Below, one piece after another: positions 2,432 to 26,650 of a stretch of 64,000 nucleotides of DNA. The position numbers were made by a program, and so were the translations under genes. The stretch's first letter is position 1, and each line of letters opens with the position of its first letter. Origin of the DNA: Dehalococcoidia bacterium (GTDB taxonomy: Bacteria; Chloroflexota; Dehalococcoidia; Lucifugimonadales; CBDCYU01); contig CBDCYU010000003.1 of assembly GCA_965224345.1 (NCBI GenBank), forward strand, positions 1,993,748-2,057,747. The letters run 5' to 3'. The notes beneath the pieces are model-generated. The model was not told the origin of the DNA. It searched no databases and saw only the letters and a list, made by a program, of their open reading frames with translations.

Positions 2432-4486
<2,055 letters not shown>

Positions 4487-4683
4487 TCAATGAACATGCG
4501 GGCTTGCTTGAACGCATGTACCGAAATATGCCAAGCACATTACATATCCATTGTATCACATTAGAGCCGTCTACGCCTTGCAAAACGGGGCCCGCGGCAG
4601 GGCTATTTTGCCGTCCGAAAACCCTCACGCCGCCCTTGTGCTCACCAATCTCCTGCGAGGGAGAGATAGGTTTGCTTCTGAGC

Positions 4684-4713
4684 TTGACAACGCGCCCGGT
4701 TGAGTGGTCAAAT
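4684..4713 (+). promoter_or_regulatory. Candidate sigma70-type promoter for the riboswitch/btu operon
   Basis: TTGACA at 4684-4689, 18-nt spacer, TCAAAT at 4708-4713, directly upstream of the riboswitch. Confidence 0.35.
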
Positions 4714-4715
4714 GC

Positions 4716-4950: not shown

Positions 4951-5000
4951 GCCTTCATCCGCCGGGCGCCGCGTCCTCTACGGCCTGAGGAGCAGGCAAG

Positions 5001-5921: not shown

Positions 5922-5933
5922 AGCGGCGCTTCA

Positions 5934-6983
5934 TTGAGGCCGTCGGCCCCGATGGTACGGCGTTACCCGTGGCGGCGGCTTTTGGCCGGCCTGGCCGTCG
6001 CGGCGGCGGCGGCCCTGCTGGCAGCCGGGATCGGGTCCGTCAGCATACCGCCGCTGGCCGTCCTACATCTGCTGGCGTCGAAGCTGCCCTTGGTCGACGC
6101 AGACTCCAGCTGGCCGGAGACGTGGGACACCATCGTGTGGCAGCTGAGGCTGCCCCGGATCCTCCTGGCCGCCATCGTGGGCGTGGCGCTGGCCATATCG
6201 GGAGCCACCTTCCAGGCCCTCTTCAGAAATCCCCTGGCCACACCATCGCTGATAGGGGTGTCGTCCGGTGCGGGGCTTGGCGCCACCATCGTCATGGTCA
6301 CGGGGGTACCCCTGGCGTTCCAGGGCGTCAGCCTCGTCCCGGTGGCCGCCTTCGCGGGCGGCTTGGCCGCGGTCAGCGCAGCATACTTCGTCTCACGCCG
6401 GACGGACGGCCTGCCTCTGACGTCTCTCATACTGGCGGGTGTGGCCATCGCCTACCTGGCCAACGCCGTCTCCAGCATGCTCCTGATACGGAGCGACCCC
6501 GACATTCGCCCGGTGCTCAGCTGGCTGCTGGGGGGATTCGCATCGGCGCAGTGGAAGCACAGCTACCTCTTGCTCCCATACCTGGCTCCCAGCATCGTCG
6601 TGGTGCTGGGATACTCCCGCGTACTGAACGTGCTGCAGCTGGACGAGGAGCACGCCCAGCAGCTCGGCGTCAACGTGGAGCGTACCAAGCTGGTGTTGAC
6701 GGCGGCGGCAACACTGGCCACGGCGGCCGCCGTCTCCTTCAGCGGCCTGATCGTCTTCGTGGGCCTCGTCGCCCCCCACTCCGTCCGGCTCATCTGGGGA
6801 GACGACAACCGGTTCCTGCTGCCCATGTCGGCCATCGTCGGGGCCGGCTTTCTCATACTGGCCGACCTTGCGGCCAGGACGGTCCTGAGCCCCACCGAGC
6901 TGCCTGTCGGCATCGTCACCGCCTTCTGCGGGGCTCCCTTCTTCCTGTACCTTCTGAAGCGGCGAAGGATCACGGGCTTCTGA
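5934..6983 (+). CDS. FecCD-family ABC permease (BtuC-like)
   Basis: Polytopic membrane protein with LRLPRILLAAIVGVALAISGATFQALFRNPLA and GIVTAFCGAPFFLYLL motifs. Start is either TTG 5934 or ATG 5952. Confidence 0.85.
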   Translation: MRPSAPMVRRYPWRRLLAGLAVAAAAALLAAGIGSVSIPPLAVLHLLASKLPLVDADSSWPETWDTIVWQLRLPRILLAAIVGVALAISGATFQALFRNPLATPSLIGVSSGAGLGATIVMVTGVPLAFQGVSLVPVAAFAGGLAAVSAAYFVSRRTDGLPLTSLILAGVAIAYLANAVSSMLLIRSDPDIRPVLSWLLGGFASAQWKHSYLLLPYLAPSIVVVLGYSRVLNVLQLDEEHAQQLGVNVERTKLVLTAAATLATAAAVSFSGLIVFVGLVAPHSVRLIWGDDNRFLLPMSAIVGAGFLILADLAARTVLSPTELPVGIVTAFCGAPFFLYLLKRRRITGF

Positions 6984-7804
6984 TGCGAGAGAAGGGCCTC
7001 TCTATGCTGGTGGTACAGGACCTGCACTTCGGGTACGGGTCCGAGGGGGTGCTGAGGGGCTTTGCGATGGAGGTGGGCCGGGGCGAGATGGTCGGCATAG
7101 TGGGCCCAAACGGGGTTGGCAAGACGACCATACTGCGACTGATCAGCGGGGTCCTGTCGCCCTCCCGGGGCCGCGTCTTCGTGGACGGCTCCGACATTAC
7201 GACGCTTACCGCCGCACAGCGGGGCCGGCTCGTCTCCGTCGTCCCCCAGAACCCCAGGCTTCCCCTGGGGTTCAAGCTCCTGGACCTGGTAATGATGGGG
7301 AGGAACCCGCACCTGGGACTGCTCCAGTGGGAGGGCGAGCGGGACGTGGAGGCCGCCCGGACGGCCATGGAGATGACAGGGCTCTGGCGCCTGGCGGACC
7401 GGGCCGTGGGCACGTTGTCCGGCGGCGAGCAGCAGCGCGCGGTGGTCGCCCTGGCGCTGACGCAGGAGGCCCCGGTGATGCTGCTGGACGAGCCCACCTC
7501 GAGCTTGGACCTTGCCCACCAGACGGGGATTCTGGACCTGGTGACCGAGGTGCAGCACCGCCTCAAGGGTACGGTGGTGATGGCGATCCACGATCTGACG
7601 CTGGCAGCCCAGTACTGCGACCGGCTGGTGATGCTGGCTGGCGGGCGAGAGTATGCCGACGGTGCCCCGCGCGACGTGCTTACCGAGGAGAACGTCTCCC
7701 ACGTCTACGGTGCCGAGGTGTTCATCCTGTCACATCCGCAGCGTGGGACGCCGGTGGTGCTGCCGCGCTCCGGCAAGGGCCTCGACTACGGTCCCGACGG
7801 CTGA
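6983..7804 (+). CDS. ABC transporter ATP-binding protein (BtuD/FepC-like)
   Basis: ATG overlaps the permease TGA (cttcTGATGcg). Walker A GPNGVGKTT, signature LSGGEQQR, Walker B MLLDEPTS. The upstream part of track ORF 5969..7804 overlaps the permease out of frame and is ignored. Confidence 0.88.
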   Translation: MREKGLSMLVVQDLHFGYGSEGVLRGFAMEVGRGEMVGIVGPNGVGKTTILRLISGVLSPSRGRVFVDGSDITTLTAAQRGRLVSVVPQNPRLPLGFKLLDLVMMGRNPHLGLLQWEGERDVEAARTAMEMTGLWRLADRAVGTLSGGEQQRAVVALALTQEAPVMLLDEPTSSLDLAHQTGILDLVTEVQHRLKGTVVMAIHDLTLAAQYCDRLVMLAGGREYADGAPRDVLTEENVSHVYGAEVFILSHPQRGTPVVLPRSGKGLDYGPDG

Positions 7805-7809
7805 GACGC

Positions 7810-8040
7810 TTACCCCAGCGAGACGCAGGTGTTGGTGCGGACCACGCCGGGAAGGGTGTGTATGGCGCTGACCACGACCTCGCTGATCTCGTTCAGGTCT
7901 TCCGCCTCGAGCACCGCCACCACGTCGTAGGGCCCCGTGACCCTATCGACCTGCAAGACTTGTCTCCGACCCCTCAGGGCGTCCACCAAGCCTCTAGAGT
8001 GACCCGCCGTCATTTCGATCAGGATATAGGCCTTAACCAT
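7810..8040 (-). CDS. Stand-alone Lrp/AsnC ligand-binding (RAM) domain protein, 76 aa
   Basis: MVKAYILIEMTAGHSRGLVDALRGRRQVLQVDRVTGPYDVVAVLEAEDLNEI... matches the AsnC-type effector domain, with no HTH. Start lies 15 nt after the groEL stop. The rest of track ORF 7810..8706 is antisense to groEL. Confidence 0.7.
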   Translation of the reverse strand: MVKAYILIEMTAGHSRGLVDALRGRRQVLQVDRVTGPYDVVAVLEAEDLNEISEVVVSAIHTLPGVVRTNTCVSLG

Positions 8041-8054
8041 GAGACTCCTCCGTC

Positions 8055-9656
8055 CTAATCGTCCCAGGGCTCGGGCAGCTTCATGGGATTGAGCTCGGTG
8101 ATCAGCGACTCCGTGGTCAAGACCATGCCCGCCACGCTGGCGGCGTTCTCCAAGGCCGACCTCGTCACCTTCGCCGGGTCCAAGATGCCCATTTCGAGCA
8201 TGTTGCCGAAGCGCTCGGCGTCGGCATCGAAGCCCCAGTCTCCCTCGCCCTTCTTGACGCCGTCCAGGATCACCTCGCCGGACAGACCGGCGTTGTCGGC
8301 TATCAGCTTTACGGGCGCGTCCACGGCGGAGAGGACGATCCGTACCCCCGTGCGCTCGTCGCCGTCGGCGTCGAGCCTGTCTGCGACGGTCTTGGCCGCC
8401 CGTATCAGGGATGTGCCGCCCCCGGCGACGATCCCTTCGTCCATAGCCGCGCGGGTTGCCGAGAGGGCGTCCTGCAGGCGCTCCTTCTTCTCGCGAAGCT
8501 CGCCCTCCGTCGCGGCGCCGACCCTCATCACCGACACGCCGCCGAAGAGCTTGGCCGCACGCTCCTCGAGCTTCTCGCGATCGTAGCTGGAGGTGGTGTC
8601 CTCCGCCTGGCGCCTCAGCTGGCCCACCCTCTCCTCTATCGCCCCGGAGTCTCCCGCCCCCTCGACGAAGACGGTGTCGTCCTTGTTGGAGATGATACGG
8701 CGGCACCTGCCCAGGTCCGATATGTCGGCGGAATCGAGATCGCGTCCGATGTCCTTGCTGATGACGGTCGCCCCCAGGAGGATCGACATGTCCTCCAGGA
8801 TGGCCTTCCGGCGGTCGCCGAAGGCGGGCGCCTTGATGGCCAGGCAGCTCAGGTTGCCCCTGACCTTGTTTACGACCAGGGTCGCCAGCGCCTCCCCCTC
8901 GATGTCCTCGCCGATGACGACGAGGCTCTTGCTCACGGGGTTCAACTTCTCCAGGAGCGGGAGAAGGTCCGACATGGAAGATATCTTCTCCGAGGTCAGC
9001 AGGACGTAGGGGTTGTCGATCTCGGCCACCATGCGGTCTTGGTCCGTAACGAAGTGCGGAGAGACGTAGCCCCTGTCGATCTCCATGCCCTCCACGTAGT
9101 CGACCTCGTAGTAAAGGCCCTGGGACTCCTCTACCGTCACGATCCCCTGACGGCCGACCTTGTCCAGCACCTCGCCGATCCTGGCTCCCATCTCGTCATC
9201 GTGCGCCGCCAGGGAGGCGACTTGGATGATCTGATCTTTACCCTGGACCGACTGCGCCATCCCCGCGATCTCTTGGCGAATGGCGTCTACCGCTCTGTCT
9301 ATGCCCCTCTTGAGCACCATGGGATTGGCGCCGGCGGTGACGTTCTTGAACCCCTCCTGGATCATGGCCCGCGCCAAGACCGTCGACGTTGTTGTGCCGT
9401 CGCCGACCACGTCGTTGGTCTTGATGGCCGCCTCCTTGAGGAGCTGGGCGCCCATGTTCTGGAAGGGCTCTTTCAGCTCTATGTCCCTGGCGATGGTGAC
9501 TCCGTCGCTGCACACGTGGGGAGCGCCGACCTCCTGTCCCAGGAGGACGTTGCGTCCGGTGGGCCCCAGGGTCGCTCCCACGGCCCTGACGACGGTGTCC
9601 ATGCCCAGGATCAGCTCGTGACGGGCATCGTCGCTGAATTGAAACTGCTTAGCCAT
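8055..9656 (-). CDS. groL: Chaperonin GroEL paralogue (60 kDa, divergent, no GGM tail)
   Basis: 533 aa with DGTTTSTVLA, IVTVEES, AVKAPAFGDRRKA-like (AIKAPAFGDRRKA) and GIVAGGG motifs. C-terminus ends ...MKLPEPWDD. No groES adjacent. Confidence 0.9.
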   Translation of the reverse strand: MAKQFQFSDDARHELILGMDTVVRAVGATLGPTGRNVLLGQEVGAPHVCSDGVTIARDIELKEPFQNMGAQLLKEAAIKTNDVVGDGTTTSTVLARAMIQEGFKNVTAGANPMVLKRGIDRAVDAIRQEIAGMAQSVQGKDQIIQVASLAAHDDEMGARIGEVLDKVGRQGIVTVEESQGLYYEVDYVEGMEIDRGYVSPHFVTDQDRMVAEIDNPYVLLTSEKISSMSDLLPLLEKLNPVSKSLVVIGEDIEGEALATLVVNKVRGNLSCLAIKAPAFGDRRKAILEDMSILLGATVISKDIGRDLDSADISDLGRCRRIISNKDDTVFVEGAGDSGAIEERVGQLRRQAEDTTSSYDREKLEERAAKLFGGVSVMRVGAATEGELREKKERLQDALSATRAAMDEGIVAGGGTSLIRAAKTVADRLDADGDERTGVRIVLSAVDAPVKLIADNAGLSGEVILDGVKKGEGDWGFDADAERFGNMLEMGILDPAKVTRSALENAASVAGMVLTTESLITELNPMKLPEPWDD

Positions 9657-9680
9657 CTATCTCACCTCGTGATTGATGTA

Positions 9681-11924
9681 CTACTGTCGTCCGTCGCCGC
9701 TCCCGATAGCCTTGGTCACTGCGCCGGGAGACATCGGGAGCTCGGTCAGTCTCACCCCGACCGCGTCGTATATGGCGTTGGAGAGCGCCGCCAGAGGCGG
9801 CACTATGGGCGCCTCGCCGACGCCACGCACCCCGAAGGGATGCCCCGGATTCGGCACCTCGATGAGGACCGAGTCTATCATCGGCACGTCGAGGCTGGTG
9901 GGCATCCGATAGTCGAGGAAGCTATTGTTGAGCATACGGCCGTCGTCGCTCATATAGTACTCCTCGTTGAGCGCCCAGCCGATCCCCTGGACGGTTCCGC
10001 CCTGCAGCTGCCCCTCGACGTAGCTCGGGTGTATGGCCGTGCCCGCGTCCTGGAAGGCGGTGTACCGTAGGATCTCTACCTTGCCGGTCTCCGGGTCGAC
10101 CTCCACGTCGACGATGTTGGCGGCATAAGAGCCGCTGGCGCCGCGGGGGTTCAGGCTGGCTTCGCCGACGACCGGCCCGCCGGTGTCGTTCAATGTCGGA
10201 GCCATCTCTCGGAGGGTGGTGCTAAGCTCGGGGTCCGACACGTGACGGAGCTCGCCGTCCTCGTACTCCACCTGCTCGGCAGGGACCTCCCACATCATGG
10301 CGGCCCGCTCGATGAGCTGTCGCTTGATGTCCTGGGCGGCCTCATAGGCGGCCCAGCCGGTCTTGAAGGCGACGCCGCTGCCGCCGGTATTGGACGTATA
10401 GCCGATGGTATCGGTGTCCGCCACTTGGGGGTTTACGTCCTCGACACGGATGCCCAGGACCTCTGCCAGCTGCTGGGCAATGGCCGTCCGGGAGCCGCCG
10501 ATGTCCATGGAGCCTTCCACCAGAATGACCGTACCGTCGGGGACCACAGTGGCCACCACGCTGGACGGACCGGTGTTGTTGCGCCAGAAGCCCATGGCCA
10601 CACCCCTGCCGCGGTTCTCCCCCTCCAGGGGGGTCGCGTAGTGGGGATGGGACCTGACCGCCTCCGCCGTCTCGAGCATTCCGATGGGGCCGTTGATGAC
10701 GCCGTCGACACGCCGCGTGCCCTCGCGGGCCCCGTTCATAACACGGAGCTCGACGGGATCCAGGCCGAGGTCGCCGCATATCTCGTCGATCAGCGTTTCC
10801 ACGGCGAAGGTGCCTATGGGCGCTCCGGGAGCGCGGTAGGCGCTGGTCTTCGTCTTATTGTCCACGACGTCGTAGCCGTCTATCTGGACGTTCTCGATGT
10901 CGTAGGACGAGAGCATGCAGGCGGTGGCGCCGCCCAGAGAGGAGCCCGGATAGGCGCCCGACTCGAAGGCGAGGCGCGCCTGCACCGCCTTGATACGGCC
11001 CTCCTCGGTCACGCCGATCTTGACCTTCACGTAGCTGCCGGAGGTCGGACCGGTGGCCTCAAAGACCTCGGCCCTGGTCATGGTCATCTTCACGGGGAGG
11101 CCGCTCTTCTTGGAGAGCAGGGCAGCCAACGGCTCCAGGTAGGCGCCCAGCTTGCCGCCGAACCCTCCGCCTATCTCCATGGGCACCACCTTGACCCTGG
11201 AGACCGGCAGGCCCAGGACCTTGGACGTGCTGTCCCTGACGCCGAAGTGTCCCTGGCTGCTGCACCATACCGTAAGACGGTCGTCCGGCGTCCACCAGGC
11301 GGTAGCGTTCTGGGGCTCGATGTAGCCCTGGTGCACGGACTTCGTGCGGAACTCGCGCTCGAATATCCGGTCGGCCTTCCGGAATCCCTTCTCAACGTCC
11401 CCCAACTTGAACTGCTGGTGGGCCGCTACGTTGGTCGCCTTCCCATTCTCGCCGGTTGTGATGTGATCGTGGAGGACCGGGGCGTCAGCCGCCATCGCGT
11501 CCTCGACGTTGGTCACCGAGGGCAGCACCTCGTACTCCACCTCGATGAGCGAGAGGGCCTCCTCGGCGTCGTGGGGGCTGACGGCGACCAGCGCGGCGAC
11601 GGGATGGCCCGTGAACAACACCTTGTCCGAGGCGAGCACCTTGTCACGGACAAATTTCGCGAGACCGTCGGAGACGGGCGCCAAGTCCTCCGAGACGACC
11701 ACCGCCCGTACGTCGGGGTGGGCCTCGGCCTTGCTCGTGTCGATGGACTTGATCCTCGCATGAGCGTGGGGGCTGCGCAGCACCTTGCCATGGATCAACC
11801 CGGGGAGCTGAACGTCAGCGCCATAGAGTGCCTTGCCGGTCACCTTGTCGACACCGTCATGCCTGATGGGACGCGTGCCGACGACCTTGTATCCACTCTT
11901 ATTCGTCCTAGTCTCTGTTGCCAT
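9681..11924 (-). CDS. Xanthine dehydrogenase/aldehyde oxidase-family molybdopterin-binding large subunit
   Basis: From ATG 11924: MATETRTNKSGYKVVGTRPIRHDGVDKVTGKALYGADV..., the typical N-terminus of the family, with GGGFGGK and later MoCo-binding blocks. The track ORF extension to 12191 is Arg/Pro-rich junk. Confidence 0.85.
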   Translation of the reverse strand: MATETRTNKSGYKVVGTRPIRHDGVDKVTGKALYGADVQLPGLIHGKVLRSPHAHARIKSIDTSKAEAHPDVRAVVVSEDLAPVSDGLAKFVRDKVLASDKVLFTGHPVAALVAVSPHDAEEALSLIEVEYEVLPSVTNVEDAMAADAPVLHDHITTGENGKATNVAAHQQFKLGDVEKGFRKADRIFEREFRTKSVHQGYIEPQNATAWWTPDDRLTVWCSSQGHFGVRDSTSKVLGLPVSRVKVVPMEIGGGFGGKLGAYLEPLAALLSKKSGLPVKMTMTRAEVFEATGPTSGSYVKVKIGVTEEGRIKAVQARLAFESGAYPGSSLGGATACMLSSYDIENVQIDGYDVVDNKTKTSAYRAPGAPIGTFAVETLIDEICGDLGLDPVELRVMNGAREGTRRVDGVINGPIGMLETAEAVRSHPHYATPLEGENRGRGVAMGFWRNNTGPSSVVATVVPDGTVILVEGSMDIGGSRTAIAQQLAEVLGIRVEDVNPQVADTDTIGYTSNTGGSGVAFKTGWAAYEAAQDIKRQLIERAAMMWEVPAEQVEYEDGELRHVSDPELSTTLREMAPTLNDTGGPVVGEASLNPRGASGSYAANIVDVEVDPETGKVEILRYTAFQDAGTAIHPSYVEGQLQGGTVQGIGWALNEEYYMSDDGRMLNNSFLDYRMPTSLDVPMIDSVLIEVPNPGHPFGVRGVGEAPIVPPLAALSNAIYDAVGVRLTELPMSPGAVTKAIGSGDGRQ

Positions 11925-12792: not shown

Positions 12793-14211
12793 ATGAAGGA
12801 CAGAGAGCTTGCGTTTGCGCCCGCTCACCGGCTGGCGGAGCTGATAGCGCGAAAAGAAACGTCGCCGGTGGAGGTGACGGAGCTATTCATTCGCAGGATC
12901 GAAGGGCTTGACGCGGACCTCAACGCCTATCTCACGGTTGCGGCGGACGAGGCTCTCGGCTTCGCCAAGCTGGCGGAGCAGGCCGTCGTGGACGGCGAGC
13001 ATCTGGGCCCGCTGCACGGTGTGCCCATCTCCATCAAGGACCTGGAGGTAACCGCCGGCATCCGGACGACCTTCGGCTCTCTCATCTACCGTGACTACGT
13101 CCCCGACAGCGACTCGGGCGTCGTGAGACGGATCCGCAGCTCGGGAGCGGTGATCATGGGGAAGACCAACACGCCCGAGTTCGGCATGTCCGGCACCACG
13201 GAGAACCGGCTTGGGGACGCCTGCCGCAACCCGTGGGACACCTCGCGGACCACGGGCGGCTCCAGCGGCGGCTCCGCCGCGGCGGTGGCTGCGGGACTGT
13301 GCCCGCAGGCCACGGGCAGCGACGCCGGCGGCTCGATTCGCATCCCCGCCAGCTTCTGCGGCGTCTACGGCATAAAGCCCACGCTGGGGAGGGTGCCGCG
13401 CTTCGGAGGCGTGGCGCGCCCCAGCCCCAATCCGGTCTCTCAGCCGGGCCCAATAACCCGCACGGTGAGAGACGCCGCGTTGATGCTGCAGCTGCTGGCC
13501 GGGCCCGACGAGAACGACGTGATCACCATCCGGGAAGAGCCTCCGGACCTCCTGGCCGGCCTCGACGACGGGGTGGACGGCCTCCGGATTGCGTGGAGCC
13601 CGGACCTGGGCTTCGCCGCCGTCGACGGGGAGGTCTCCAGGATCACCGCCCAGGCCGCGGGCCTCTTCGAGGAGCTTGGCGCTGAGGTGGAGGAGACAGA
13701 CATCCGGCTGGACGACCCCTTCAACCAACTGAACGCCATCCCTCTGGCCAACGGGTACGCGTCATACGGACACCTCCACGAGGAGAGGCCATCTGACCTC
13801 AGCGGGCTCGTGCGGCGACGGCTGGATCTGGGCAAGCGGGTTACCGGCGCCGAGTACGCCCGGGCGCTGCGGTACCTGGAGCAGATGTGGCGTCAAGTAG
13901 AGCTGCTGATGGAGCGGTACGACCTGCTGGCGACTCCGACGATGGCGGTGCCCGCCTTCCCGGTCGGCGAACGGCCATCCAACATCGCCGGTCAAGAGGT
14001 AGAGGCCGACTGGGCCTTCAATCCCTTCAACCAGGTATTCAACATGACCCAGCAGCCCGCCGCGAGCATTCCCTGCGGGTTCACGGCCGGCGGCCTGCCC
14101 GTCGGTCTGCAGCTGGTTGGCCGGCTGGGGGAAGAGGCGACGGTGCTCCGGGCCTCCGCCGCCTTCGAGAGGCTGCGGCCCTGGGCGGACACCCTACCCC
14201 CGGTGAGCTAG
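12793..14211 (+). CDS. Amidase (amidase-signature family)
   Basis: 472 aa. AS signature GGSSGGSAAAVAAG...GSDAGGSIRIPASFCG. Good SD (AAGGAGA) before the ATG. Confidence 0.88.
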   Translation: MKDRELAFAPAHRLAELIARKETSPVEVTELFIRRIEGLDADLNAYLTVAADEALGFAKLAEQAVVDGEHLGPLHGVPISIKDLEVTAGIRTTFGSLIYRDYVPDSDSGVVRRIRSSGAVIMGKTNTPEFGMSGTTENRLGDACRNPWDTSRTTGGSSGGSAAAVAAGLCPQATGSDAGGSIRIPASFCGVYGIKPTLGRVPRFGGVARPSPNPVSQPGPITRTVRDAALMLQLLAGPDENDVITIREEPPDLLAGLDDGVDGLRIAWSPDLGFAAVDGEVSRITAQAAGLFEELGAEVEETDIRLDDPFNQLNAIPLANGYASYGHLHEERPSDLSGLVRRRLDLGKRVTGAEYARALRYLEQMWRQVELLMERYDLLATPTMAVPAFPVGERPSNIAGQEVEADWAFNPFNQVFNMTQQPAASIPCGFTAGGLPVGLQLVGRLGEEATVLRASAAFERLRPWADTLPPVS

Positions 14212-14393
14212 CGACGGCGCTCTAGGAGCTCCTGAAGGCGAGGACCAGAAGGTAGAGTGCTATGGGAAGCACAATCATCCAGAGGACCACGCGGGGCGAA
14301 AGCTTCATGGGCCGGCAGCTCCAGGCTCCTCCGCGCAGCGTCGGAGGCTGCGCGGCCAAAGTGAACGGACGCGATTCTATCATAGGGTGAGTC

Positions 14394-15221
14394 ATGGGAT
14401 ACAAGCTCATCGCTCTTGACGTCGACGGCACCATCTTGACGAACGAGCGCGGACTTGCGGACCGCACGCGGCTGGCCGTGGCCAGGGCCGCGAAGGCGGG
14501 CGCCGCCGTTACCCTTGCGACCGGCAGGATGTTCACGTCGGCCCGCCGGGCCAGCCGCCAGCTCGGCATCTCGACTCCCATCGCAACCTCCCAGGGGGCG
14601 CACGTCGCCGACCCCGCCAGCGGCGAGGTGCTCTACCACCTGCCGTTGAGCGAGCAGATGGCCCTGGACGCCCTGGCAGCGCTCCGCTCTTCGGACCTAG
14701 AAATCATGGCCTACCACGACGACGCGGTCTATGTTAAGGAGATGACGCCCTGGTCCGAAGCCTATGCCCAGCGCAACGGGACCGACGTCAGGGCCGTCGG
14801 GGACCTGGCGAGCGTCGCGGGACGGGGACTTACGCGCCTGGTGGTCGTCGGGGACGAAGAGGAGATCCGGCTCCTGGAGAGCGCCCTCATCCCCAGGATA
14901 GGCTCGAGGCTGTACGTCACGAGGTCGCTCCCTCACTTCTGCGAGATACTGCACCCTGAGGGGGGCAAGGACAGGGCGCTGGCGTGGCTGTGCCGCCGCC
15001 TGGGCGTGCAGAGAGGCGAGACCGTGGCCTTTGGCAACGGCTACAACGACGTGCGCATGCTCAGGTGGGCCGGTCTGGGCGTTGCGGTGGCGGACGCCGT
15101 CCCCGAGGTGCTGGAGGCCGCGGACAGGGTCGCTCCACCCACCGAAGAGGACGGGGTGGCCCAGGTGTTGGAGCAGCTCCTGGACCAGGGCCTAATCGGC
15201 GAGGACAGCCGCTCCGGCTAG
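14394..15221 (+). CDS. Cof-type HAD-IIB phosphatase
   Basis: KLIALDVDGTIL motif I, ATGR, and GNGYNDVRML motif IV. Confidence 0.82.
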   Translation: MGYKLIALDVDGTILTNERGLADRTRLAVARAAKAGAAVTLATGRMFTSARRASRQLGISTPIATSQGAHVADPASGEVLYHLPLSEQMALDALAALRSSDLEIMAYHDDAVYVKEMTPWSEAYAQRNGTDVRAVGDLASVAGRGLTRLVVVGDEEEIRLLESALIPRIGSRLYVTRSLPHFCEILHPEGGKDRALAWLCRRLGVQRGETVAFGNGYNDVRMLRWAGLGVAVADAVPEVLEAADRVAPPTEEDGVAQVLEQLLDQGLIGEDSRSG

Positions 15222-15224
15222 CGC

Positions 15225-15311
15225 CTAGCTTTCCGGGGCCTGTATCTCACCGACTTCCTGACCGCGGAGACCTTCCTGAGTGTAGGAAACCTGGAACAGG
15301 TACTTGGGCAT
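15225..15311 (-). pseudogene. 28-codon remnant resembling the N-terminus of a GYD-domain protein
   Basis: Strong SD (AGGAGGGTGGCA) then ATG. MPKYLFQVSYTQEGLRG... matches GYD N-termini but stops after 28 codons, abutting the HAD gene end. Confidence 0.25.
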
Positions 15312-15388
15312 TGCCACCCTCCTGACGCGATAACCATTCGGACCCCGGTCGCAAACAGGTACGACCTGGAAGCCGATCGCAACTCAGC

Positions 15389-16174
15389 TTAACGAGACTC
15401 GAGGAAGCCGGAGACTAGGCGTGCTATCTCGTCGGGGCGCTCCAGTATCAGGAGGTGGCCCGCGTCCTCCACGACGTGGAGGCTGGAGGACGGTACTCGG
15501 GCGGCGAGCTCGGCCCCGTGGGAGGGGGGCACGATGCGGTCGCCGTCGGCGACGATGACGAGCGTCTCGGACCTGATGCGATGGAGCCGCTTGCTGAGGC
15601 CCTTGTCGGGGATGGGCCACAGGAACCTGGCGACGGTGCTGAGGGCTCGGGCCCGCTCGATGCCCATGCGGGCGCGGTCCTCGTCGCTATCGGGATCGGG
15701 CATGGCCTCCATGGCGATGGCCGACTCGGGGTCGTTGAACAGCAACCCTCGCAGCTCGTCCGCGGGGGTGGCGAAGTAGTCAGCGCCGGGGTCGTCGTCG
15801 AGCCACAGGCCGGCGGGCGACGCCAGCACCAGCCTGCCGACACGCTCAGGACGGATCGCCGCCATCTCCGCGGCGATCATCGCTCCGAAGAAGTGTCCCA
15901 TGACGTTGGGAGAGTCCAGTCCCAGGGCGTCGAGTAGGTCGAAGTGGTAGAGGGTCAGGTCGAGAACGTCGTCGATGGCGTCGAGGCCGCCGGCTTCAGT
16001 GAAGCCTGGATGCAGGGGGGCGTACACGCTGTAGCGCTGGGCGAGGCGGGCCAGCAACGGGGGCCAGCCGCCGTAGCCGAAGGCGCCGTGCAGGTAGACC
16101 AGCGGCTCGCCATCGCCGGAGCGCGCGACCTGGACCGGCGCGGGTCCGACCTGGACTTCCAGCATCTCAACCAT
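15389..16174 (-). CDS. Alpha/beta-hydrolase-fold protein lacking the canonical nucleophile
   Basis: Fold motifs HGAFGYGGW, VLASPAG, acid (DGDRIVP) and His (DAGHLL) are present. The nucleophile elbow reads GHFFG instead of GxSxG. Start chosen at ATG 16174 (GGAGG SD). Alternatives are 16192 or 16165. Confidence 0.7.
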   Translation of the reverse strand: MVEMLEVQVGPAPVQVARSGDGEPLVYLHGAFGYGGWPPLLARLAQRYSVYAPLHPGFTEAGGLDAIDDVLDLTLYHFDLLDALGLDSPNVMGHFFGAMIAAEMAAIRPERVGRLVLASPAGLWLDDDPGADYFATPADELRGLLFNDPESAIAMEAMPDPDSDEDRARMGIERARALSTVARFLWPIPDKGLSKRLHRIRSETLVIVADGDRIVPPSHGAELAARVPSSSLHVVEDAGHLLILERPDEIARLVSGFLESR

Positions 16175-17594
16175 GGCTGTCGCCTCCGACACCGGCCACG
16201 ACCGCCCGCTCCTCCAGTGGCTTCGGCCACCACCGATCGTCGTACTCGGCCCACATGTCCCGCACGTGGGGCAGGACCTCCGTGGCGAAGAGCTCGGTGT
16301 TCTTCATGGTGAGGTCCTTGGGCATGCTGCCGATCTGCAGCAGCACCATGAGGTGGCCGACCCTCAGCCCCTCCACTGCCTTCGTCAGGTTCTCGATCAC
16401 GGTCTTGGGGCTGCCGGCGATGACGTACCCGTCGTCCACGAAGTCCTTCCAGGTCAGGCTCTTGCGCTTCTGGGTGGCAGCCGACCCGACCTGGCTGTAC
16501 GCGCCGGTGCGCATGGTCCGGATGGTCCGGTACCCGGGTGCGTCGGCGAACCCCTCGAAGACGTGCAGGCACTTCTTGTAGAAGTAGTCGACGTGGGGGC
16601 CGTAGTCGATCTCGGCCTGCTCGTCGGTCTCGGAGACGGCCACAAGCTGGAGGAAGCCGGCCCGGTAGGGGTTGTCGTCGACGCCTAGGGAAGGTCTGAA
16701 CAACTGAGGGTATCTCGTATGTGATGGACAGTAAGTGGACTGTCCGAGGTGTTTCTTCCTCCTACCGTGTGTCGATGAGGTCTTGTGGTCCTGAAACGGC
16801 TCTGCTAAGGCGTATCTACGTTCGTTTGTCCAGCTTGGGCGCACTTCGCCCTCGTCAGGCTGCCAAGTACTGCTCCGCCCTTATCAAGTTCGTCATCCCC
16901 AGTAGCAACATCAGTCGTTGCGTGTTCTTTGCCAACCCTCGGTAACGCACCTTGGCGTATCCGAAGTGCCGCTTCACGTACAGGAACGGATGCTCCACCT
17001 TCGCCCTGGTCGACGCCTTGCGCTTCTCCATAAGCGCCTCATAGCTTCCCGGCTCCAGCTGCCGACGTCTCCCGGGTCTCATCGCTACCTGCCAGTCCAC
17101 ATCCAACTCGCGATTCTCCAATCGCTTGTCGACTCCCTGATACCCCGCATCGCCCCACACCCGTTTCTCTCCACCGTGCAGCAGCCGGTGAGCCTCCGTC
17201 ACGTCATGAACGTTCGCAGGTGTCGTTCTTACGCTATGTACTACTCCCGTCTCAGCGTCCGCACCGACGTGTACCTTCATCCCGAAGTGCCACTCATTCC
17301 CCTTCTTCGTCTGACGCATCTCAGGGTCTCGCTTACCTGCACGATTCTTCGTTGACGATGGCGCCTCAATGATGCTCGCGTCCACGATCGTTCCCTCCCG
17401 AAGCCGCAGCCCCTGGGACTCCAGATGACGGTTGATCTCCTCGAACAGACCCTGTCCCAACTCGTGCTCTTCCAGCAGATGGCGGAAGTTCAGGACCGTC
17501 GTCTCGTCCGGGAGCGGGCCCGACAGCCTCAACCCTACGAACCGTCTCACCGACTCGACCTCGTAGAGCATGTCCTCCATACCAGGATCACTGA

Positions 17595-18441
17595 GAGGGT
17601 GTTTGCAAAGTCTTGAACTTGTACTAAACTTGATGAATGAGCCGCAAATCGTACCCCAGCGACCTGACGGACGAACAGTGGGAGATCCTCGGCCCCCTAC
17701 TCCCACCAGCCAAGCCCGGAGGCCGGCCCCGTACAGTGGACCTGCGGGAGGTAGTGAACGGCATCCTGTATTTGCTTCGGAGCGGATGCCCCTGGCGGAT
17801 GGTCCCGCACGATCTGCCTCCCTGGCAGACCCTGTACAAATACTTCCGCAGTTGGACCATAGATGGAACGTGGGAACGAGTCAATGAGACGCTACGCCCC
17901 TGCGTCCGAGAGGCCGAAGGTAGAAATCCTACTCCCAGCGCAGCGATCATAGATAGCCAGAGCGTGAAGACGACTGAAAAAGGGGGCCTCGTGGCTATGA
18001 TGCTGGTAAGAAGATCAACGGTCGAAAGCGACACGTCATCGTAGATACCATGGGCTTGCTGTTGGCGGTGGTGGTGCATCCTGCCAATATCCAAGACCGA
18101 GATGGGGCGAGGCTGGTCATCGATAAATTGATAGGACGATTCCCACGCCTGCGACTCATCTGGGCTGACGCTGGCTACAGCGGCCAGTTGGTGGACTGGG
18201 TGATGTCCATGTCGGGCTGGGTCTTGGAGATCGTCAAGCGTCCCAGGGCCAGCCATCAGTTTGAGGTGCTGCCACGCAGGTGGGTGGTTGAGCGAACACT
18301 GGCGTGGCTGGGACGTTGTCGCCGGTTGAGCAAGGACTATGAAGCCCTGACCGGTACAACGGAAGCGTGGCTGCACATAGCTGCGATTCATCTCATGCTC
18401 CGACGCTTAGCTCCGTCATGATGTACTTCGAAAACACCCTC
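17595..18441 (+). mobile_element. 847-bp IS5-family element (IS427/IS1031-like), copy 1, nested in the IS5-like element
   Basis: IRs GAGGGTGTTTGCAAAGT / GAGGGTGTTTTCGAAGT (reverse complement of the right end). Flanked by TGA (17592-17594) and TAA (18442-18444). Two overlapping transposase ORFs. Confidence 0.88.
17637..18421 (+). CDS. IS5-family transposase OrfA/OrfAB (programmed -1 frameshift)
   Basis: OrfA 17637..18044 ([19 protein letters not shown]...). The OrfB frame is open from 17978 to 18421 ([44 protein letters not shown]...). Slippery GAAAAAG at 17976-17982. Confidence 0.85.
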
Positions 18442-19466
18442 TAAGGTTGTAGAACATCTGCACGCAGTGAATCCGCAGCATCACAGACAACTCATAGGGT
18501 CGCCGGCCCCGGCCTGCCCTGGGATAGAACGGGCGGATGCGTTCTACGAGCTGTTCCCAAGGGATCAGACCGTCCATGCGCTCCAGGAATATCTCCCGCC
18601 GGGTCTTGCGCTTCTTGCTCTCGTACTCCAAGTCGGCAAATGTTGGCTGGTCCATCGTGTCTTCACCCCAAACATCTCTGCTTTGTGTATGGCATAGTAC
18701 TATGCCACAACACACCAGAACTTGTTCAGAGTATCCCTAGATTGTCCATCTCCTTCCAGAACCCGTCCATGACCTGGATGCCGCGCTTGTACCCGGAGTA
18801 GCTCAAATAGCAGTAGACGTAGTCCATACGGCTGGTCCACTCCCAGGTCTCGACGCTGCCGCCGCCGGGGATCCAGACGGGCGGATGGGGCTTCTGCAGG
18901 GGCCGCGGCCAGATGTTGACGTACCGCACCTGGTTGTGCTTTCCGTTGAAGGCGAAGGGCTCCGGCTCGGTCCACGCCTTGATGACGAGGTCGTGGGCCT
19001 CGTAGTACTTCTCCCGCAGGGTCGAGGGGTTCTGGCCATAGGCGAAGTTGGTGTCCATGGAAGTCCCGACAGGCATGCCCGCCACCAGCCTACCACCGCT
19101 GGCTACGTCCAGCATGGCGAACTCCTCCGCCACCCTGATGGGAGGGTTGTAGAGGGCCAGGCTGTTGCCGAGGACGATGATGGCGGCGTTGGTGGTGCGC
19201 CGGGTCATCATGGCGGCCATGATGTTGGGCGACGGCATGATGCCGTAGCCATTGTTGTGGTGCTCGTTGACGCAGACGCCGTCGAAGCCCACCTGGTCGG
19301 CGAACTCCAGCTCGTCCAGGTACTCGTTGTAGAGGTGGTGCGCCTTCTCAGGATCGAAGAGGTGGCTGGGGATGTCGACCCAGACGCTCCGATAGTTGTC
19401 CTGGAAGTCCGCCGGCAGGTGGCGATAGGGCATGAGGTGAAACCAGCTGACCTTCATATCCAGCTC

Positions 19467-22175: not shown

Positions 22176-22334
22176 AGGGCCTCACTCTCCCCAAGTTCGA
22201 GGCTGTCCTGAAGTCCCACTCAAGCCCAGTGGGAGGGGAGCGCTTGCGGCACTAGCACGCCCCGAATGTCGAGGGCACGTTGCGCCGCCGCCCAGGTTGG
22301 CACAGGGAGAGACGACAGTGAACGTAGGCATCTG

Positions 22335-24059
22335 ATGCTTACCAATCTCACCATTCGCAACTTCAAGGCGCTTGGAGAAGTCGACATAGAGTTGGGAAGC
22401 CCAGTAGTCTTCATCGGGCCCAACAACTCCGGTAAGACATCGGCCATGCAAGCCCTGGCGCTCTGGGACATCGGGCTGAAGCGCTGGAACGAAAGGCGGT
22501 TTCGCAACAGCACGCCGGAGAGGCGCCCCGGCGTCACCGTCAATCGCCGCGACCTCGTTGCCATACCTGTGCCGAATGCACGTCTGCTATGGAATGGCCT
22601 CCACGTGCGGAACATAGTGAGGAATAACGGGCAAACTACCCAGAACATCAGGGTCGAAATCGTAGTAGAGGGAGTTACCCACAGCGAAGCATGGAAATGT
22701 GGGCTGGAGTTCGACTACGCCAACGAGGAGTCCTTCTATTGTCGCCCGCTCAGGCTCAGCGAAGGCCGTGTCCCACCCAGAATGCCCATCCCGGAGAAGG
22801 CCGCGGGGGTGAGAATAGCGTTCCTTCCTCCCATGTCGGGTCTCGCGGCAACGGAGACGCGCCTAGACGCGGGGGCGGTGAACGTGCGAATCGGCGAGGG
22901 GCGCACGGCCGAGGTGCTCCGCAATCTCTGTTCTCGCATCGAGTCGGAGCGCCCCGATCAGTGGGATAGGCTCGTATCCCAGATACGCGCCCTGTTCGGG
23001 GCCGAGCTCGGTACTCCCCAGTACGTCGCTGAGCGGGGGGAGATCGTCATGAGCTACAGGGAGAAAGGCGTAAGGCTGGACCTCTCTTCCAGCGGGAGGG
23101 GCTTGCAGCAGACCCTGCTCATACTAGCATACATGTACGCCAACCCAGGCACCGTCCTCCTGCTGGACGAGCCCGACGCTCATCTTGAGATACTCCGCCA
23201 GCGCCAGATATATCGACTGATAACGGAAGTTGCTTCAGAGAGCGGCAGTCAGATGATCGCGGCAAGCCACTCTGAGATACTCCTGAACGAGGCTGCCGAC
23301 AGAGACATGGTGATTGCCTTCGTTGGGAGACCGCATCGAATCGATGACCGCGGAAGCCAGGTCAGAAAGTCCCTCATAGACATCGGGTTCGACCACTACT
23401 ACCAAGCTGAACAGACCGGATGGGTGCTCTATCTGGAGGGCTCTACGGACCTAGCGGTCCTGCAGGCCTTCGCTCGGCGACTGGAGCACGAGAGGGCCAT
23501 CGAGGCTCTCGAGAGCCCCTTCATTCACTATGTCGGGAATCAACCGCCAAAGGTGCTTGACCATTACTTTGGCCTGAGGGAGGCGCTCCCTAAGCTACGT
23601 GGCATAGCTATCCTCGACAGATTGGAGATCGCCCCTCCTGATAGCGGCCCCCTGGAGCTCTTGACCTGGGAGCGGCGTGAAATCGAGAGCTACTTCTGTT
23701 CCCGGCGTACCCTCGAAAACTATGCGCGGGCGTTGGCAGAGTCCGAAACGCCGGGGGCCCTATTTGCGCCGCTCGAAGTGAAGAGACGCTTGGAGGTGAT
23801 GCATGGGGCTATCCGGGATGTCGAAGACGCGATGGAAACCCTGGGTAGAGGCTCCCCTTGGCAGGGCGACGCTAAGGTAAGCGATGAGTTCCTGGCTCCC
23901 CTTTTTAGGACCTACTTCCGAGAGCTCGGCCTGCCGAATCTGATGAATAAGAAGGACTTCTACGAGCTGGTCAGACATGTCCCTGACGATGAGATCGAGC
24001 CCGACATTAGCGCAAAGCTAGACGCCATCGCGCGGGCCGCGGACAGCGCCGAACCCTGA
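22335..24059 (+). CDS. ABC/OLD-type AAA ATPase fused to a Toprim/DUF4435-like C-terminal module (defence candidate)
   Basis: N-terminus: LTIRNFKALGEVDIELGSPVVFIGPNNSGKTS (Walker A), SSSGRGLQQ, LLLDEPDAHLE (Walker B), ASHSE. C-terminus: WVLYLEGSTDLAVLQAF, GIAILDRLE, TWERREIESYF. GC looks lower than the flanks. Confidence 0.6.
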   Translation: MLTNLTIRNFKALGEVDIELGSPVVFIGPNNSGKTSAMQALALWDIGLKRWNERRFRNSTPERRPGVTVNRRDLVAIPVPNARLLWNGLHVRNIVRNNGQTTQNIRVEIVVEGVTHSEAWKCGLEFDYANEESFYCRPLRLSEGRVPPRMPIPEKAAGVRIAFLPPMSGLAATETRLDAGAVNVRIGEGRTAEVLRNLCSRIESERPDQWDRLVSQIRALFGAELGTPQYVAERGEIVMSYREKGVRLDLSSSGRGLQQTLLILAYMYANPGTVLLLDEPDAHLEILRQRQIYRLITEVASESGSQMIAASHSEILLNEAADRDMVIAFVGRPHRIDDRGSQVRKSLIDIGFDHYYQAEQTGWVLYLEGSTDLAVLQAFARRLEHERAIEALESPFIHYVGNQPPKVLDHYFGLREALPKLRGIAILDRLEIAPPDSGPLELLTWERREIESYFCSRRTLENYARALAESETPGALFAPLEVKRRLEVMHGAIRDVEDAMETLGRGSPWQGDAKVSDEFLAPLFRTYFRELGLPNLMNKKDFYELVRHVPDDEIEPDISAKLDAIARAADSAEP

Positions 24060-24066: not shown

Positions 24067-25143
24067 TCAGGCAGGGGCCGGCACCTCTACCGCGATGGAG
24101 TGGACGGAGTTGTTGGCGTAACCGCGGAAGTTCCAGGGAACCTTGATGGGCTGGGTGTTGCCCGCGGAGTCCGTTGCCCTGGACATGAGCACGAAGTGGC
24201 CCGAGGTCGCCGCGTCCCACCGGAGCCTCCACCGCCTCCAGGCGCCCGGTGCCTCGGGGCCGAAGAGCTCGGCCTCCCGCCAGCTCTCTCCCCCGTCGAT
24301 GCTCAACTCCACCCTCGCTATCGGACCCTCCCCGGACCAGGCGGCTCCCTCGACCGTGTACCCTCCACGCCTCACGACCTCGCCGTGCCGGGGCGTGGTT
24401 ATCAGCGACTTCACCTTCAGCGACGTCACCGGCTCCCATCGAGCCTGGGCCTCTCCGCTGGGGATGTAGACGTAGCGGCGGCTCTGGAAGAAGCCCTCGA
24501 AGGGCTCCGCCAGCAGGGTGAGCCGGCGCAGCCACTTCACGGAGGCCATGCCGTACCAGCCGGGGACGACCAGCCGGAGCGGATAGCCGTGAACGGGCCG
24601 AAGGGGCTCCCCGTTCATCCGGTAGGCCACGAGGGTGTCGCGGTGCATCGCCTTCTCCAGGGGGAGGCTCCTGGCGAACCTGACCTCCACCGTCTCTCCT
24701 TCCTCTTCCTCCTCGCCCACGTCGGCCCCCTCGCAGAGCACCTCCACGGCCCCCCGCTTGGGCCCCGCCTTGGAGAGCAGGTCCCTCAGGGAGACGCCGG
24801 TCCACTCCGCGTTGCCCACCGCACCGTGGAGGAAGCCGATCCCCTCCGCCGGAGGCGTCATGTACGACCGGCTGTTGCCCGCGCACTCCAGGGTTATCGC
24901 CATCGACCTGCCGGGCATCGACGCCAAGTCCTGCAGGCTCAGATCCAGGGGATGGTCCACCTCGCCGTCGACGATGAGCCGCCAGGCGGCGTCTCCCTGG
25001 GGAATATCCGAGAAGTGACTCCGGCCGTAGAAACGCTCCGTCGGCGTGGTCCACGAGTCCAGGCTAGGCAGCAGCGCCTCCCTGGCGTCGGGGTTTTTCG
25101 AGACGACCCTCCGGTGGCTGGCTTCTCCCCTGTTGGATGCCAT
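24067..25143 (-). CDS. Sulfite oxidase-family molybdopterin oxidoreductase
   Basis: ITLECAGNSR (MoCo-binding Cys), HGYPLRLVVPGWYGMASVKWL, and a C-terminal Ig-like dimerisation domain. No signal peptide. Confidence 0.85.
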   Translation of the reverse strand: MASNRGEASHRRVVSKNPDAREALLPSLDSWTTPTERFYGRSHFSDIPQGDAAWRLIVDGEVDHPLDLSLQDLASMPGRSMAITLECAGNSRSYMTPPAEGIGFLHGAVGNAEWTGVSLRDLLSKAGPKRGAVEVLCEGADVGEEEEEGETVEVRFARSLPLEKAMHRDTLVAYRMNGEPLRPVHGYPLRLVVPGWYGMASVKWLRRLTLLAEPFEGFFQSRRYVYIPSGEAQARWEPVTSLKVKSLITTPRHGEVVRRGGYTVEGAAWSGEGPIARVELSIDGGESWREAELFGPEAPGAWRRWRLRWDAATSGHFVLMSRATDSAGNTQPIKVPWNFRGYANNSVHSIAVEVPAPA

Positions 25144-25898: not shown

Positions 25899-26650
25899 CT
25901 ACTCGTCCATCTCGCCGCGAATCAGTGATCTGACCAGGGGCAGAACGTCAGACGCGACCCGTCGGCACTCCTCGACGTGAGGGTAGCCCGACAGGATGAA
26001 CTCGTCCCTATCCACATCAGGTAGACGTCCGACTGGCGGCCCGCCAGCGCCAGGGCCCTATCGGACGCGCCGCCCAAGTAGAACCTCGGTCCGTCCCCAC
26101 CGGGGCTGGGAGAACACACGGCGCCGTTCAGATTGACGTACTCGCCCTGAAAGGTCACCGGCCCCGGGGAGCGCCACAGCGCGCGGCAGGCGCCGATGAA
26201 CTCCTCGAACCTGGCGTAGCGGTCGCCGTGGCTGCTGGCGTCTCCCATCCGCTCGTAGTCGCCCTGAATGCCGCCGGGGACGACGTTGATATCGAGCCTG
26301 CCGCCGGTTATCTCGTCCAGCGTGGCTGCCATCTGTGCGAACAGCCCCGTAGAGATAAAGCCGGGGCGGACCGCGACCAGGAAGCGTATCCTGTCGGTGA
26401 CGGCCCCCAGCGCCGTCACCGTAGTCCACGTTTCGGCCAGCGGGGCGCCCTCGTCGAAGAGCCCGTTAGTGAACCTCGTCGGGATCAGAAGCGAGTTGAA
26501 GCCCAGCTCCTCCGCCGTCTCCACCACCCGTCTCAGATACTCGAAGGTCGGCGGCCTCTCGGCCCGATGCGTACCGATGTGAGCGCCGTCTCCGTCGATG
26601 GGTATGAACCAGTCGAACAGGGGATCAGGCCTCTGGGAGGAACCGGCCAC
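25899..26650 (-). pseudogene. LLM-class flavin oxidoreductase with internal deletion and frameshift
   Basis: About 213 aa of good LLM sequence (FDWFIPIDGDGAHIG...RQSDVYLMW) runs directly into the family C-terminus DRDEFILSGYPHVEECRRVASDVLPLVRSL in another frame (stop 25899-25901). About 80-100 aa of the middle are missing. Confidence 0.6.

Follow-up and report, generated by a model that had tools for sequence, protein, structure and literature searches.

A stand-alone ABC ATPase–Toprim gene in a Dehalococcoidia genome, probably a single-gene anti-phage system of the OLD/PARIS superfamily

Main finding

The DNA described here is a stretch of 64,000 nucleotides (the window) from a Dehalococcoidia bacterium (contig CBDCYU010000003.1, positions 1,993,748 to 2,057,747 of the forward strand), and positions are counted from its first nucleotide. 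On the forward strand, a gene at 22335..24059 encodes a protein of 574 amino acids followed by a stop codon, as delimited by the list of open reading frames (ORFs) and the alignment of homologues. This protein very probably combines an ABC ATPase with a Toprim nuclease. It would be a stand-alone, ATP-regulated nuclease of the OLD/PARIS superfamily, and most likely acts as a single-gene anti-phage system of the abortive-infection type. By its architecture and context, the gene belongs with the single-gene (Class 1-type) OLD proteins and merged PARIS. It represents an unnamed subfamily within this superfamily, which fails the profile tests for PF20469 and PF14491 and differs at the DxD motif of the Toprim domain.

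An initial annotation, made from the sequence alone, had read the 574-amino-acid ORF as a fused, compact relative of OLD and PARIS. This reading is supported, as none of the three outcomes that it had named as speaking against it was observed. All the motifs it quoted are present in the translation at the coordinates it implied, and an AAA_15/AAA_21 ATPase and a modelled Toprim core are indeed found in one chain. The longest ATG-initiated version of the ORF is somewhat larger (22266..24059, forward strand, 597 amino acids). Since every homologue begins with MLT, the ATG at 22335 is considered the true start. Both modules are under purifying selection in one polypeptide.

The ATPase half

The N-terminal module and its motifs are located as follows. 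Here and below, conservation was computed over 120 close homologues together with as many as 140 representatives of clusters at 50% identity.

22335..23336, forward strand: N-terminal ABC-type ATPase, residues 1-334 (Pfam, PADLOC, PDB and Foldseek)
22416..22442, forward strand: Walker A motif GPNNSGKTS, residues 28-36 (translation; K34 100% conserved)
23085..23111, forward strand: ABC signature-like motif SSSGRGLQQ, residues 251-259 (translation; G256 and Q259 100% conserved)
23157..23189, forward strand: Walker B motif and D-loop LLLDEPDAHLE, residues 275-285, with D278, E279 and H283 (E279 100%, D278 96% conserved)
23262..23276, forward strand: H-loop ASHSE, residues 310-314 (translation; H312 97% conserved)

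All catalytic motifs of the ATPase are intact in the window protein. Residues K34, E174, G256, Q259 and E279 are invariant across the family. Together with the 97% conservation of H312, this shows that the ATPase is under selection as an enzyme. In Pfam, residues 1-334 match AAA_21 (3.9e-18) and AAA_15 (1.1e-17), both beyond the curated cut-offs. Hidden Markov models (HMMs) of PADLOC matched the ATPase parts of NsnB, AriA, mad3, GajA, Old and AbiLi; all PADLOC results reported here are profile matches from its HMM library and not calls by its system rules. The best sequence match in the PDB was 6p74, the Class 1 OLD nuclease of Thermus scotoductus (TsOLD). In the AlphaFold model, the insert between the Walker A and signature motifs is compact and beta-rich, with three helices. 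This insert is short, whereas OLD has a dimerisation domain.

Another reading, of negligible probability, would make the protein an ABC transporter ATPase. Weak NCBIfam and PDB matches to the nucleotide-binding domains of transporters point in this direction, but they extend over the signature/Walker B region only. Nevertheless, the NCBIfam matches to transporters, like those to RecF, are far under their cut-offs, and no gene for a permease or a binding protein is conserved in the vicinity. The best matches are of the OLD, GajA, PtuA and Rad50 class, and a Toprim domain is fused to the ATPase. The transporter candidate is effectively refuted by its sub-cut-off scores, the lack of a permease and the OLD-class best matches.

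The Toprim half

The C-terminal half is predicted to adopt a Toprim fold with the conserved acidic residues E368, D372, D428 and E449/E451. It is divided as follows.

23337..23417, forward strand: two-helix linker from the ATPase to the Toprim core, residues 335-361 (secondary structure of the model)
23418..23699, forward strand: Toprim core, residues 362-455, in the order beta1, alpha, alpha, beta2, alpha, beta3, beta4 (model, Foldseek and HMM matches of relatives)
23421..23450, forward strand: Toprim motif 1 WVLYLEGSTD, residues 363-372, at the end of beta1 (E368 97%, D372 98% conserved)
23601..23627, forward strand: Toprim motif 2 GIAILDRLE, residues 423-431, at the end of beta3 (D428 95% conserved)
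23664..23696, forward strand: Toprim motif 3 TWERREIESYF, residues 444-454, just past beta4 (W445, E449, E451 and Y453, 94-98% conserved)
23700..24056, forward strand: C-terminal helical bundle, residues 456-574, with K539 96% conserved (helices of the model, homology to sister families)

AlphaFold2 models were built with an alignment of 51 sequences and reached a mean predicted local distance difference test (pLDDT) score of 89.7 at full length and 94.5 for the C-terminus alone. The strands of the model span residues 363-367, 397-399, 422-427 and 440-444; two helices follow the first strand, and a five-helix bundle comes last. With the full-length model, Foldseek returned TsOLD (6p74) at the top (E 1e-14) and GajA next (E 4e-12 to 1e-11), the alignments to OLD and GajA extending over about 640-680 columns. 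PtuA and Rad50 were matched as well. With the C-terminal model, the C-terminal region of Xanthomonas OLD came first (6njx, 6njw and 6njv; E 4.5e-3 to 6e-3, probability 0.98-1.0) and AriB second (8ux9_A, E 7e-3; 8v46_D, E 0.1). The chain 8ux9_A is AriB, since AriA is the 464-amino-acid chain B. These OLD and AriB entries make up the top five, GajA follows further down, and nothing unrelated ranks above OLD and AriB. The E-values of these C-terminal matches are marginal, however.

Profile searches were made with the window protein and its relatives. The window C-terminus (residues ~336-574) had no match in Pfam or PADLOC even at E<=10, PF20469 and PF14491 included, and the full-length protein reaches the PADLOC AriAB model through its ATPase only. 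Of the 51 relatives, 14 have C-termini that match AriAB, the fused-PARIS model of PADLOC (best E 5.4e-7), and three match AriB. The AriAB register is constant in the four members examined, with beta3 through 'REIENY' on profile positions 491-561 of 694. Pfam OLD-like_TOPRIM (PF20469) is likewise scored by three of the 51 (best E 1.8e-4), and PF14491 (DUF4435) is absent among the 25 of 27 Pfam families listed for them. An hhalign comparison of the family with P2 Old is collinear from the ATPase C-lobe into the Toprim glutamate, where 'VLLVEGKTE' corresponds to 'VLYLEGSTD' (probability 39%, E 3e-4). A profile of the 51 C-termini gave only spurious bile-acid-receptor matches among PDB sequences (E>0.01), and a Foldseek search against the viral structures of BFVD gave nothing below E 0.2.

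A search of representative sequences with the C-terminus gave 726 clusters at 50% identity, and in every full-length match the C-terminal domain lies at about residues 335-575 of a protein of 550-630 amino acids. It is therefore always fused to this ATPase. The conservation of E368, D372, D428, E449 (97%), E451 (96%) and K539 at 95-98% argues for selection on the predicted metal site. The published metal ligands of AriB are E26, D30, D88, E90 and E122. Residues E368 and D372 of the window protein are spaced as E-x3-D like E26 and D30, about 60 residues lead to the next Asp, and a Glu follows just past beta4. In contrast, D88-x-E90 of AriB corresponds to D428-R-L. Position 431 is D or E in 61% of the representatives.

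The Toprim identity rests on Foldseek, on the AriAB and PF20469 matches of the relatives, and on the near-invariant acidic residues at AriB-like spacing. The initial annotation had suspected a Toprim/DUF4435-like C-terminus with acidic motifs. The motifs proved near-invariant among homologues and the Toprim likeness found the support just described, which is indirect and modest, but the window protein itself is matched by no Pfam or PADLOC model in this half.

It is very improbable that the domain is a non-catalytic or decaying relic, that is, a degenerate Toprim kept for regulation or binding, or a window copy that is no longer functional. Such a state would fit the Leu or Ile in place of the second Asp of DxD, the failure of the Pfam Toprim and DUF4435 models, and the split copies of close relatives described below. 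However, the six residues of the predicted site retain their 95-98% conservation across representatives at 50% identity, and the window copy is full-length with every motif present and confident models.

Sister families

A scan of viral contigs revealed other fused proteins of about 598 amino acids (L088-L096) and one of 693 amino acids (L086). Their C-termini are picked up by the C-terminal HMM of the window family at 20-33 bits, and their motifs read LLIVEGxSDERFL, SIRDRDD and WRRRHIENY. By hhalign, the window family and the 598-amino-acid family align over 203 columns of the C-terminal domain (98.5%, E 2.7e-15) and over 531 columns at full length (100%, E 1e-49, 23% identity). Motif 1 corresponds to the sister 'LLIVEGxSD', motif 2 to 'RDRDD' and motif 3 to 'WRRRHIENY'. 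Both families thus share the motif order VEGxSD ... D-R ... ENY and a C-terminus unseen by Pfam, but the 598-amino-acid family keeps the canonical DRD(D). Given this end-to-end homology, the window gene belongs to a wide group of ATPase-Toprim proteins, each encoded by a single gene, in which present Pfam models do not recognise the nuclease half.

The 598-amino-acid family is common in Pseudomonas, Burkholderia and Enterobacteria, where it is annotated as 'AAA family ATPase' or 'ATP-dependent nuclease'. The 693-amino-acid family (Actinobacteria and others) is similar to it. Pfam gives no annotation for the C-terminus of the 598-amino-acid family, and neither the L088 nor the L086 family carries a Pfam DUF4435 annotation. 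The C-terminal sister profile found one chance match only in the PDB, and tblastn of the sister C-terminus against plasmids found chance matches only. The full-length sister profile matched AriA and OLD in the PDB, but not AriB. In Escherichia coli EC931 (NZ_CP049118.1), a 598-amino-acid sister gene annotated only as 'AAA family ATPase' (L106, 9001-10797) lies in a P2-like prophage between the genes for baseplate protein V (gpV) and virion-morphogenesis protein (gpS). This position is a phage cargo-gene slot. The window family, in contrast, is mostly chromosomal and solitary.

Relation to known systems

Class 1 OLD genes stand alone, without a helicase, reverse transcriptase or other partner, and are typically not found beside defence genes. 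The window protein resembles P2 Old and TsOLD (6P74) in being a single polypeptide in the range of ~530-590 amino acids, with an ABC ATPase followed by Toprim and a helical region. It also resembles them in its stand-alone gene without a conserved partner, and 6p74 is its top match in both sequence and structure. It differs in that PF20469 does not score it, in the D-R-hydrophobic form of its DxD motif, and in the hhalign probability to P2 Old of only 39%. Class 2 OLD proteins are larger than those of Class 1 and have an extra helical insert in Toprim. GajA of Gabija, a Class 2 OLD protein, shares the ATPase-Toprim architecture and is matched by Foldseek and, in the ATPase, by PADLOC. However, the window protein is of Class 1 size and has no conserved GajB/UvrD helicase partner. 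A GajA/GajB system was rejected as no GajB-type helicase is conserved beside the gene.

PARIS consists of an AAA_15/21 ABC ATPase (AriA) and a DUF4435 Toprim protein that acts as a tRNA nuclease (AriB), and its fused, single-gene form (AriAB) has already been described. The published thresholds for merged PARIS are 80 and 20 bits, and a PARIS call may come through the ATPase alone. The Type I restriction-modification (R-M) context of several family members fits PARIS as a sensor of anti-restriction proteins. In contrast, the window protein has 574 residues against the 694 positions of the AriAB profile and no DUF4435 match.

A further group, whose genes are embedded in Type I R-M operons, comprises the anticodon nucleases PrrC/RloC as well as rloA/rloB and AbiLi/AbiLii, which pair an ATPase with a Toprim protein of the RloB type. 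PrrC is a latent nuclease that backs up restriction. Several loci of the window family share the position between hsdS and hsdR with this group, and PADLOC matched the ATPase of AbiLi. Unlike in the window family, ATPase and Toprim are two separate genes in rloA/rloB and AbiLi/AbiLii; RloB (PF13707) was not among the reported matches. As for the suggestion that the gene could be an undescribed variant, the subfamily is indeed unnamed, but fused PARIS and single-gene OLD proteins are already described and the sisters bear the name 'ATP-dependent nuclease'.

Distribution and mobility

The protein has at least 8000 database matches, the best 120 of which are all 70-78% identical and about 580 amino acids long. 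In a bacterial and archaeal set with one genome per species, at least 573 relatives were found among 185,579 species. The distribution is therefore patchy. The locus-context counts given in this and the next section refer to the best 80 of these relatives. They cover about 13 phyla: Acidobacteriota, Chloroflexota, Latescibacterota, Alpha- and Gammaproteobacteria, Binatota, Gemmatimonadota, Nitrospirota, Nitrospinota, Rhodothermota, Desulfobacterota, Spirochaetota, Planctomycetota and Actinomycetota.

Homologues from different phyla are on average 70.9% identical (range 63-93%), and those from the same phylum 75.1%. Such near-equal values are incompatible with vertical descent across phyla, although one or two of the top cross-phylum pairs may reflect differences in taxonomic labelling. 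The nearest neighbour comes from the same phylum in 63 of 77 cases. In 71 of 78 loci, the GC content of the gene is below that of the flanking DNA (mean difference -3.5 points; Wilcoxon p 1e-11). The same holds for the window, where the gene has 59.7% GC and the 10-kb flanks 65.1%, as the initial annotation had noticed. Several source bins (APA_bin, SB066x) represent sponge symbionts, with Aplysina aerophoba and Ircinia ramosa as hosts, and many further bins would seem, from their record names only, to be of sponge origin. A literature search for a sponge-specific account of this family found none.

Mobile elements also carry the family. A copy with 57% identity is found on a viral contig (L083), at the end of a prophage tail module and beside a cytosine methyltransferase gene. 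Upstream of it, positions 1-9000 of this contig encode a tape-measure protein, an NlpC/P60 peptidase and a 1093-amino-acid host-specificity-like tail protein; the C5 cytosine methyltransferase gene lies downstream at 13581-15392. With tail genes upstream and a methyltransferase gene downstream, this copy is in a prophage accessory region. In plasmids, tblastn with the window protein found only distant ATPase relatives with less than 26% identity.

Assemblies that are 97-100% identical to the window gene include altered copies (P0391/P0395, P0392/P0396 and P0394 in the cluster of the window protein). In one assembly, the protein is split into residues 1-180 and 182-574, and in another into 1-310 and 325-574. 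In a third, the start ATG is changed and a 597-amino-acid product is called instead. These alterations in close strains may represent real decay or indel errors of long-read sequencing.

Genomic neighbourhoods

No partner or neighbour gene is conserved across the 80 loci. Their 132 immediate neighbours match 125 different Pfam families, mostly metabolic, and other close relatives of the window gene also lie amid ordinary genes. The homologues are thus not tied to one metabolic operon, a point on which the initial annotation had made its reading depend, and a sizeable minority are in defence settings. At least 15 of the 80 loci adjoin defence genes. Eight are within or directly beside Type I R-M operons in the order hsdM, hsdS, gene, hsdR, and in three of these hsdR begins 1-72 bp past the gene. 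Type IIG R-M enzymes adjoin the gene in two loci (L051, L068). Further defence neighbours are PDC-M02B, PDC-S01, HEC-01A, PDC-M24B, a PDC-M55A/NsnB-like ATPase and, in a single locus (L024), a UvrD-fusion protein. In five loci (L001, at 5374-9924, L003, L005, L013 and L048), a conserved protein of about 1517 amino acids ends 4-74 bp upstream of the gene. It has no Pfam match at 1e-5 and a partial PADLOC match to PDC-M54A (2e-18); it could represent a defence protein not yet characterised, either as a partner or as a neighbour.

The closest relatives of the window gene are found in a similar context. P0002 (78% identity to the window protein) has hsdR 25 bp downstream. P0003 (77%) lies between hsdS and a 99-amino-acid hsdR remnant. 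P0005 (77%) occupies the same chromosomal slot as P0003; it is preceded by DUF1828, and an Eco57I-type R-M enzyme is encoded 3 kb from it. This slot, between Lactamase_B and epimerase genes of related Chloroflexota, is seen in two loci (L110, 4733-9067; L109, 6438-10125). In L110, it holds hsdS, a 330-amino-acid ORF, the gene and the 99-amino-acid hsdR remnant; in L109, it holds DUF1828, the gene and a 118-amino-acid ORF. The slot looks like a decaying Type I R-M island with a surviving ATPase-Toprim gene. The pattern of the three relatives suggests that the gene was brought in by a Type I R-M cassette, which was subsequently lost through decay. In another locus (L111, 8737-9621), a gene of the metallo-beta-lactamase fold, matched by Pfam Anti-Pycsar_Apyc1, shares 4 bp with the 3' end of the homologue and is surrounded by sulfatase genes.

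The link to R-M cassettes could also be explained if the gene were a selfish module, for addiction or as a toxin, that moves along with them and with mobile elements and whose nuclease kills cells that lose the element, without any dedicated sensing of phage. This explanation is improbable. Pfam describes AAA_21 as a 'putative AbiEii toxin' domain, the gene sits in hsd operons and outlasts their decay in L110 and L109, and genes for HigB and Zeta toxins lie nearby in L109 and L112. Nonetheless, no cognate antitoxin or small partner is conserved alongside. Moreover, most copies are solitary and chromosomal, and they are apparently stable within lineages, as seen from the same-phylum nearest neighbours.

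The predominance of housekeeping and metabolic genes around most copies raises the question of a cellular function. The protein might serve in genome maintenance, i.e., in repair, recombination or the cell cycle, as do RecF, RecN and SbcC or the archaeal OLD-family ATPase Cran1. Its very high sequence conservation would agree with such a task, as would a copy near recO, recR and dnaX (L114) and the weak likeness of the ATPase head to RecF, Rad50 and SMC in NCBIfam and the PDB. However, the patchy distribution, the lack of conserved synteny, the GC content consistently under that of the flanks and the nearly equal identity between and within phyla are hardly expected of a housekeeping gene. The same is true of the copies in R-M operons and prophages. 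Frameshifted copies in near-identical strains are what would be expected if the gene were dispensable. A housekeeping role is therefore considered unlikely.

Proposed function

A role in anti-phage defence is probable. The following mechanism is inferred from the precedents of P2 Old, TsOLD, GajA and AriA/AriB. The ATPase would oligomerise and act as both sensor and switch, keeping the Toprim nuclease inactive until a cue of infection arrives. The cue might be a protein by which the phage counters restriction, or some other product of the phage; the former is plausible because of the embedding in Type I R-M operons and the precedent of PARIS, which is triggered by anti-restriction proteins. 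The two-metal Toprim site would then cut nucleic acid. The target could be DNA, cut by nicking or exonuclease activity in the manner of OLD and GajA, or else tRNA, in the manner of AriB, whose Toprim domain cleaves tRNA-Lys. Cleavage would halt the growth of the phage. In contrast to two-gene PARIS, the fused form cannot release its nuclease, and activation would therefore have to be conformational.

Several observations weigh against a defence nuclease. The structural E-values of the C-terminal model are marginal (4.5e-3 to 0.1), this region of the window protein is missed by the Pfam and PADLOC profiles, and Leu/Ile stands at position 430, where a canonical Toprim DxD has its second Asp. At 65-78%, the identity across phyla exceeds what is usual for defence genes and could reflect a conserved cellular role; Cran1 works in the cell cycle and not in defence. 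Most homologues, like the window copy, are found among ordinary metabolic genes and not in defence islands. Metabolic surroundings rather than defence islands are, however, a stated hallmark of Class 1 OLD genes.

A more specific scenario can be put forward for the clade with about 70% identity, and it is rather doubtful. Here, a defence gene that has spread horizontally among about 13 phyla, with members in sponge-symbiont genomes, would originally have travelled inside hsdM-hsdS-X-hsdR as a guard that senses anti-restriction and fires a D-R-hydrophobic Toprim nuclease. It would often persist alone after hsd decay and would form a distinct, uncharacterised branch of the OLD/PARIS superfamily, a 'fifth class' with its own trigger and substrate.

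Surroundings of the gene in the window

In the window, the neighbours are functionally unrelated to the gene, as had been stated from the sequence. A DUF1501 protein is encoded upstream, and genes for a sulfite oxidase, a short-chain dehydrogenase and a luciferase-like monooxygenase lie downstream. The last base of the stop codon is 24059, and a gap of 7 bp separates it from a convergent gene on the reverse strand (24067..25143). The identification of the latter as a sulfite-oxidase gene also held, since Pfam assigns Oxidored_molyb and Mo-co_dimer to this molybdopterin protein of the sulfite-oxidase family. No helicase gene adjoins the gene in the 64-kb window. The region ahead of the gene is as follows.

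22176..22334, forward strand: upstream intergenic region of 159 bp, with a weak AGG about 8 nt ahead of the ATG

A scan for promoters and terminators gave no promoter-like site and one terminator-like site, which is not above chance; no sigma-70-like promoter match was found in 22176..22334.

Transposase genes of the IS4/IS5 families are found 4-5 kb upstream of the gene. They form a nest with fragments at 16855-18715, made up of a DDE_Tnp_1 gene on the reverse strand, a DUF4096 and DDE_Tnp_1 pair in two ORFs on the forward strand, and a DUF772-like fragment. The nest abuts a luciferase-like monooxygenase ORF of 243 amino acids, which covers only the first half of the Pfam model and may have been truncated by the insertion sequence. 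A second luciferase-like monooxygenase ORF on the reverse strand (25922-26650, 242 amino acids) covers only profile positions 5-192 of 314 and may be truncated or frameshifted. The sole Rfam match in the window is a cobalamin riboswitch (RF00174) at 4746-4877 on the forward strand, scoring 54.4 bits where the gathering score is 31.5. The 64 kb yielded no tRNA genes.

Significance

Despite its at least 8000 database matches in 726 clusters at 50% identity, the family is labelled only 'AAA family ATPase'. As the Pfam Toprim and DUF4435 models miss the nuclease half, censuses of defence systems probably under-count or mislabel it. Whether a Class 1-type OLD protein alone gives broad phage defence is an open question in the literature, and the window clade or the sister from the P2-like prophage of E. 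coli are testable candidates to address it. Furthermore, the identity of 63-93% between phyla and the carriage by several sponge symbionts make the gene a clear marker for recent gene exchange between phyla. Since it is repeatedly placed between hsdS and hsdR, the gene may encode a nuclease that serves as a backup to Type I restriction.

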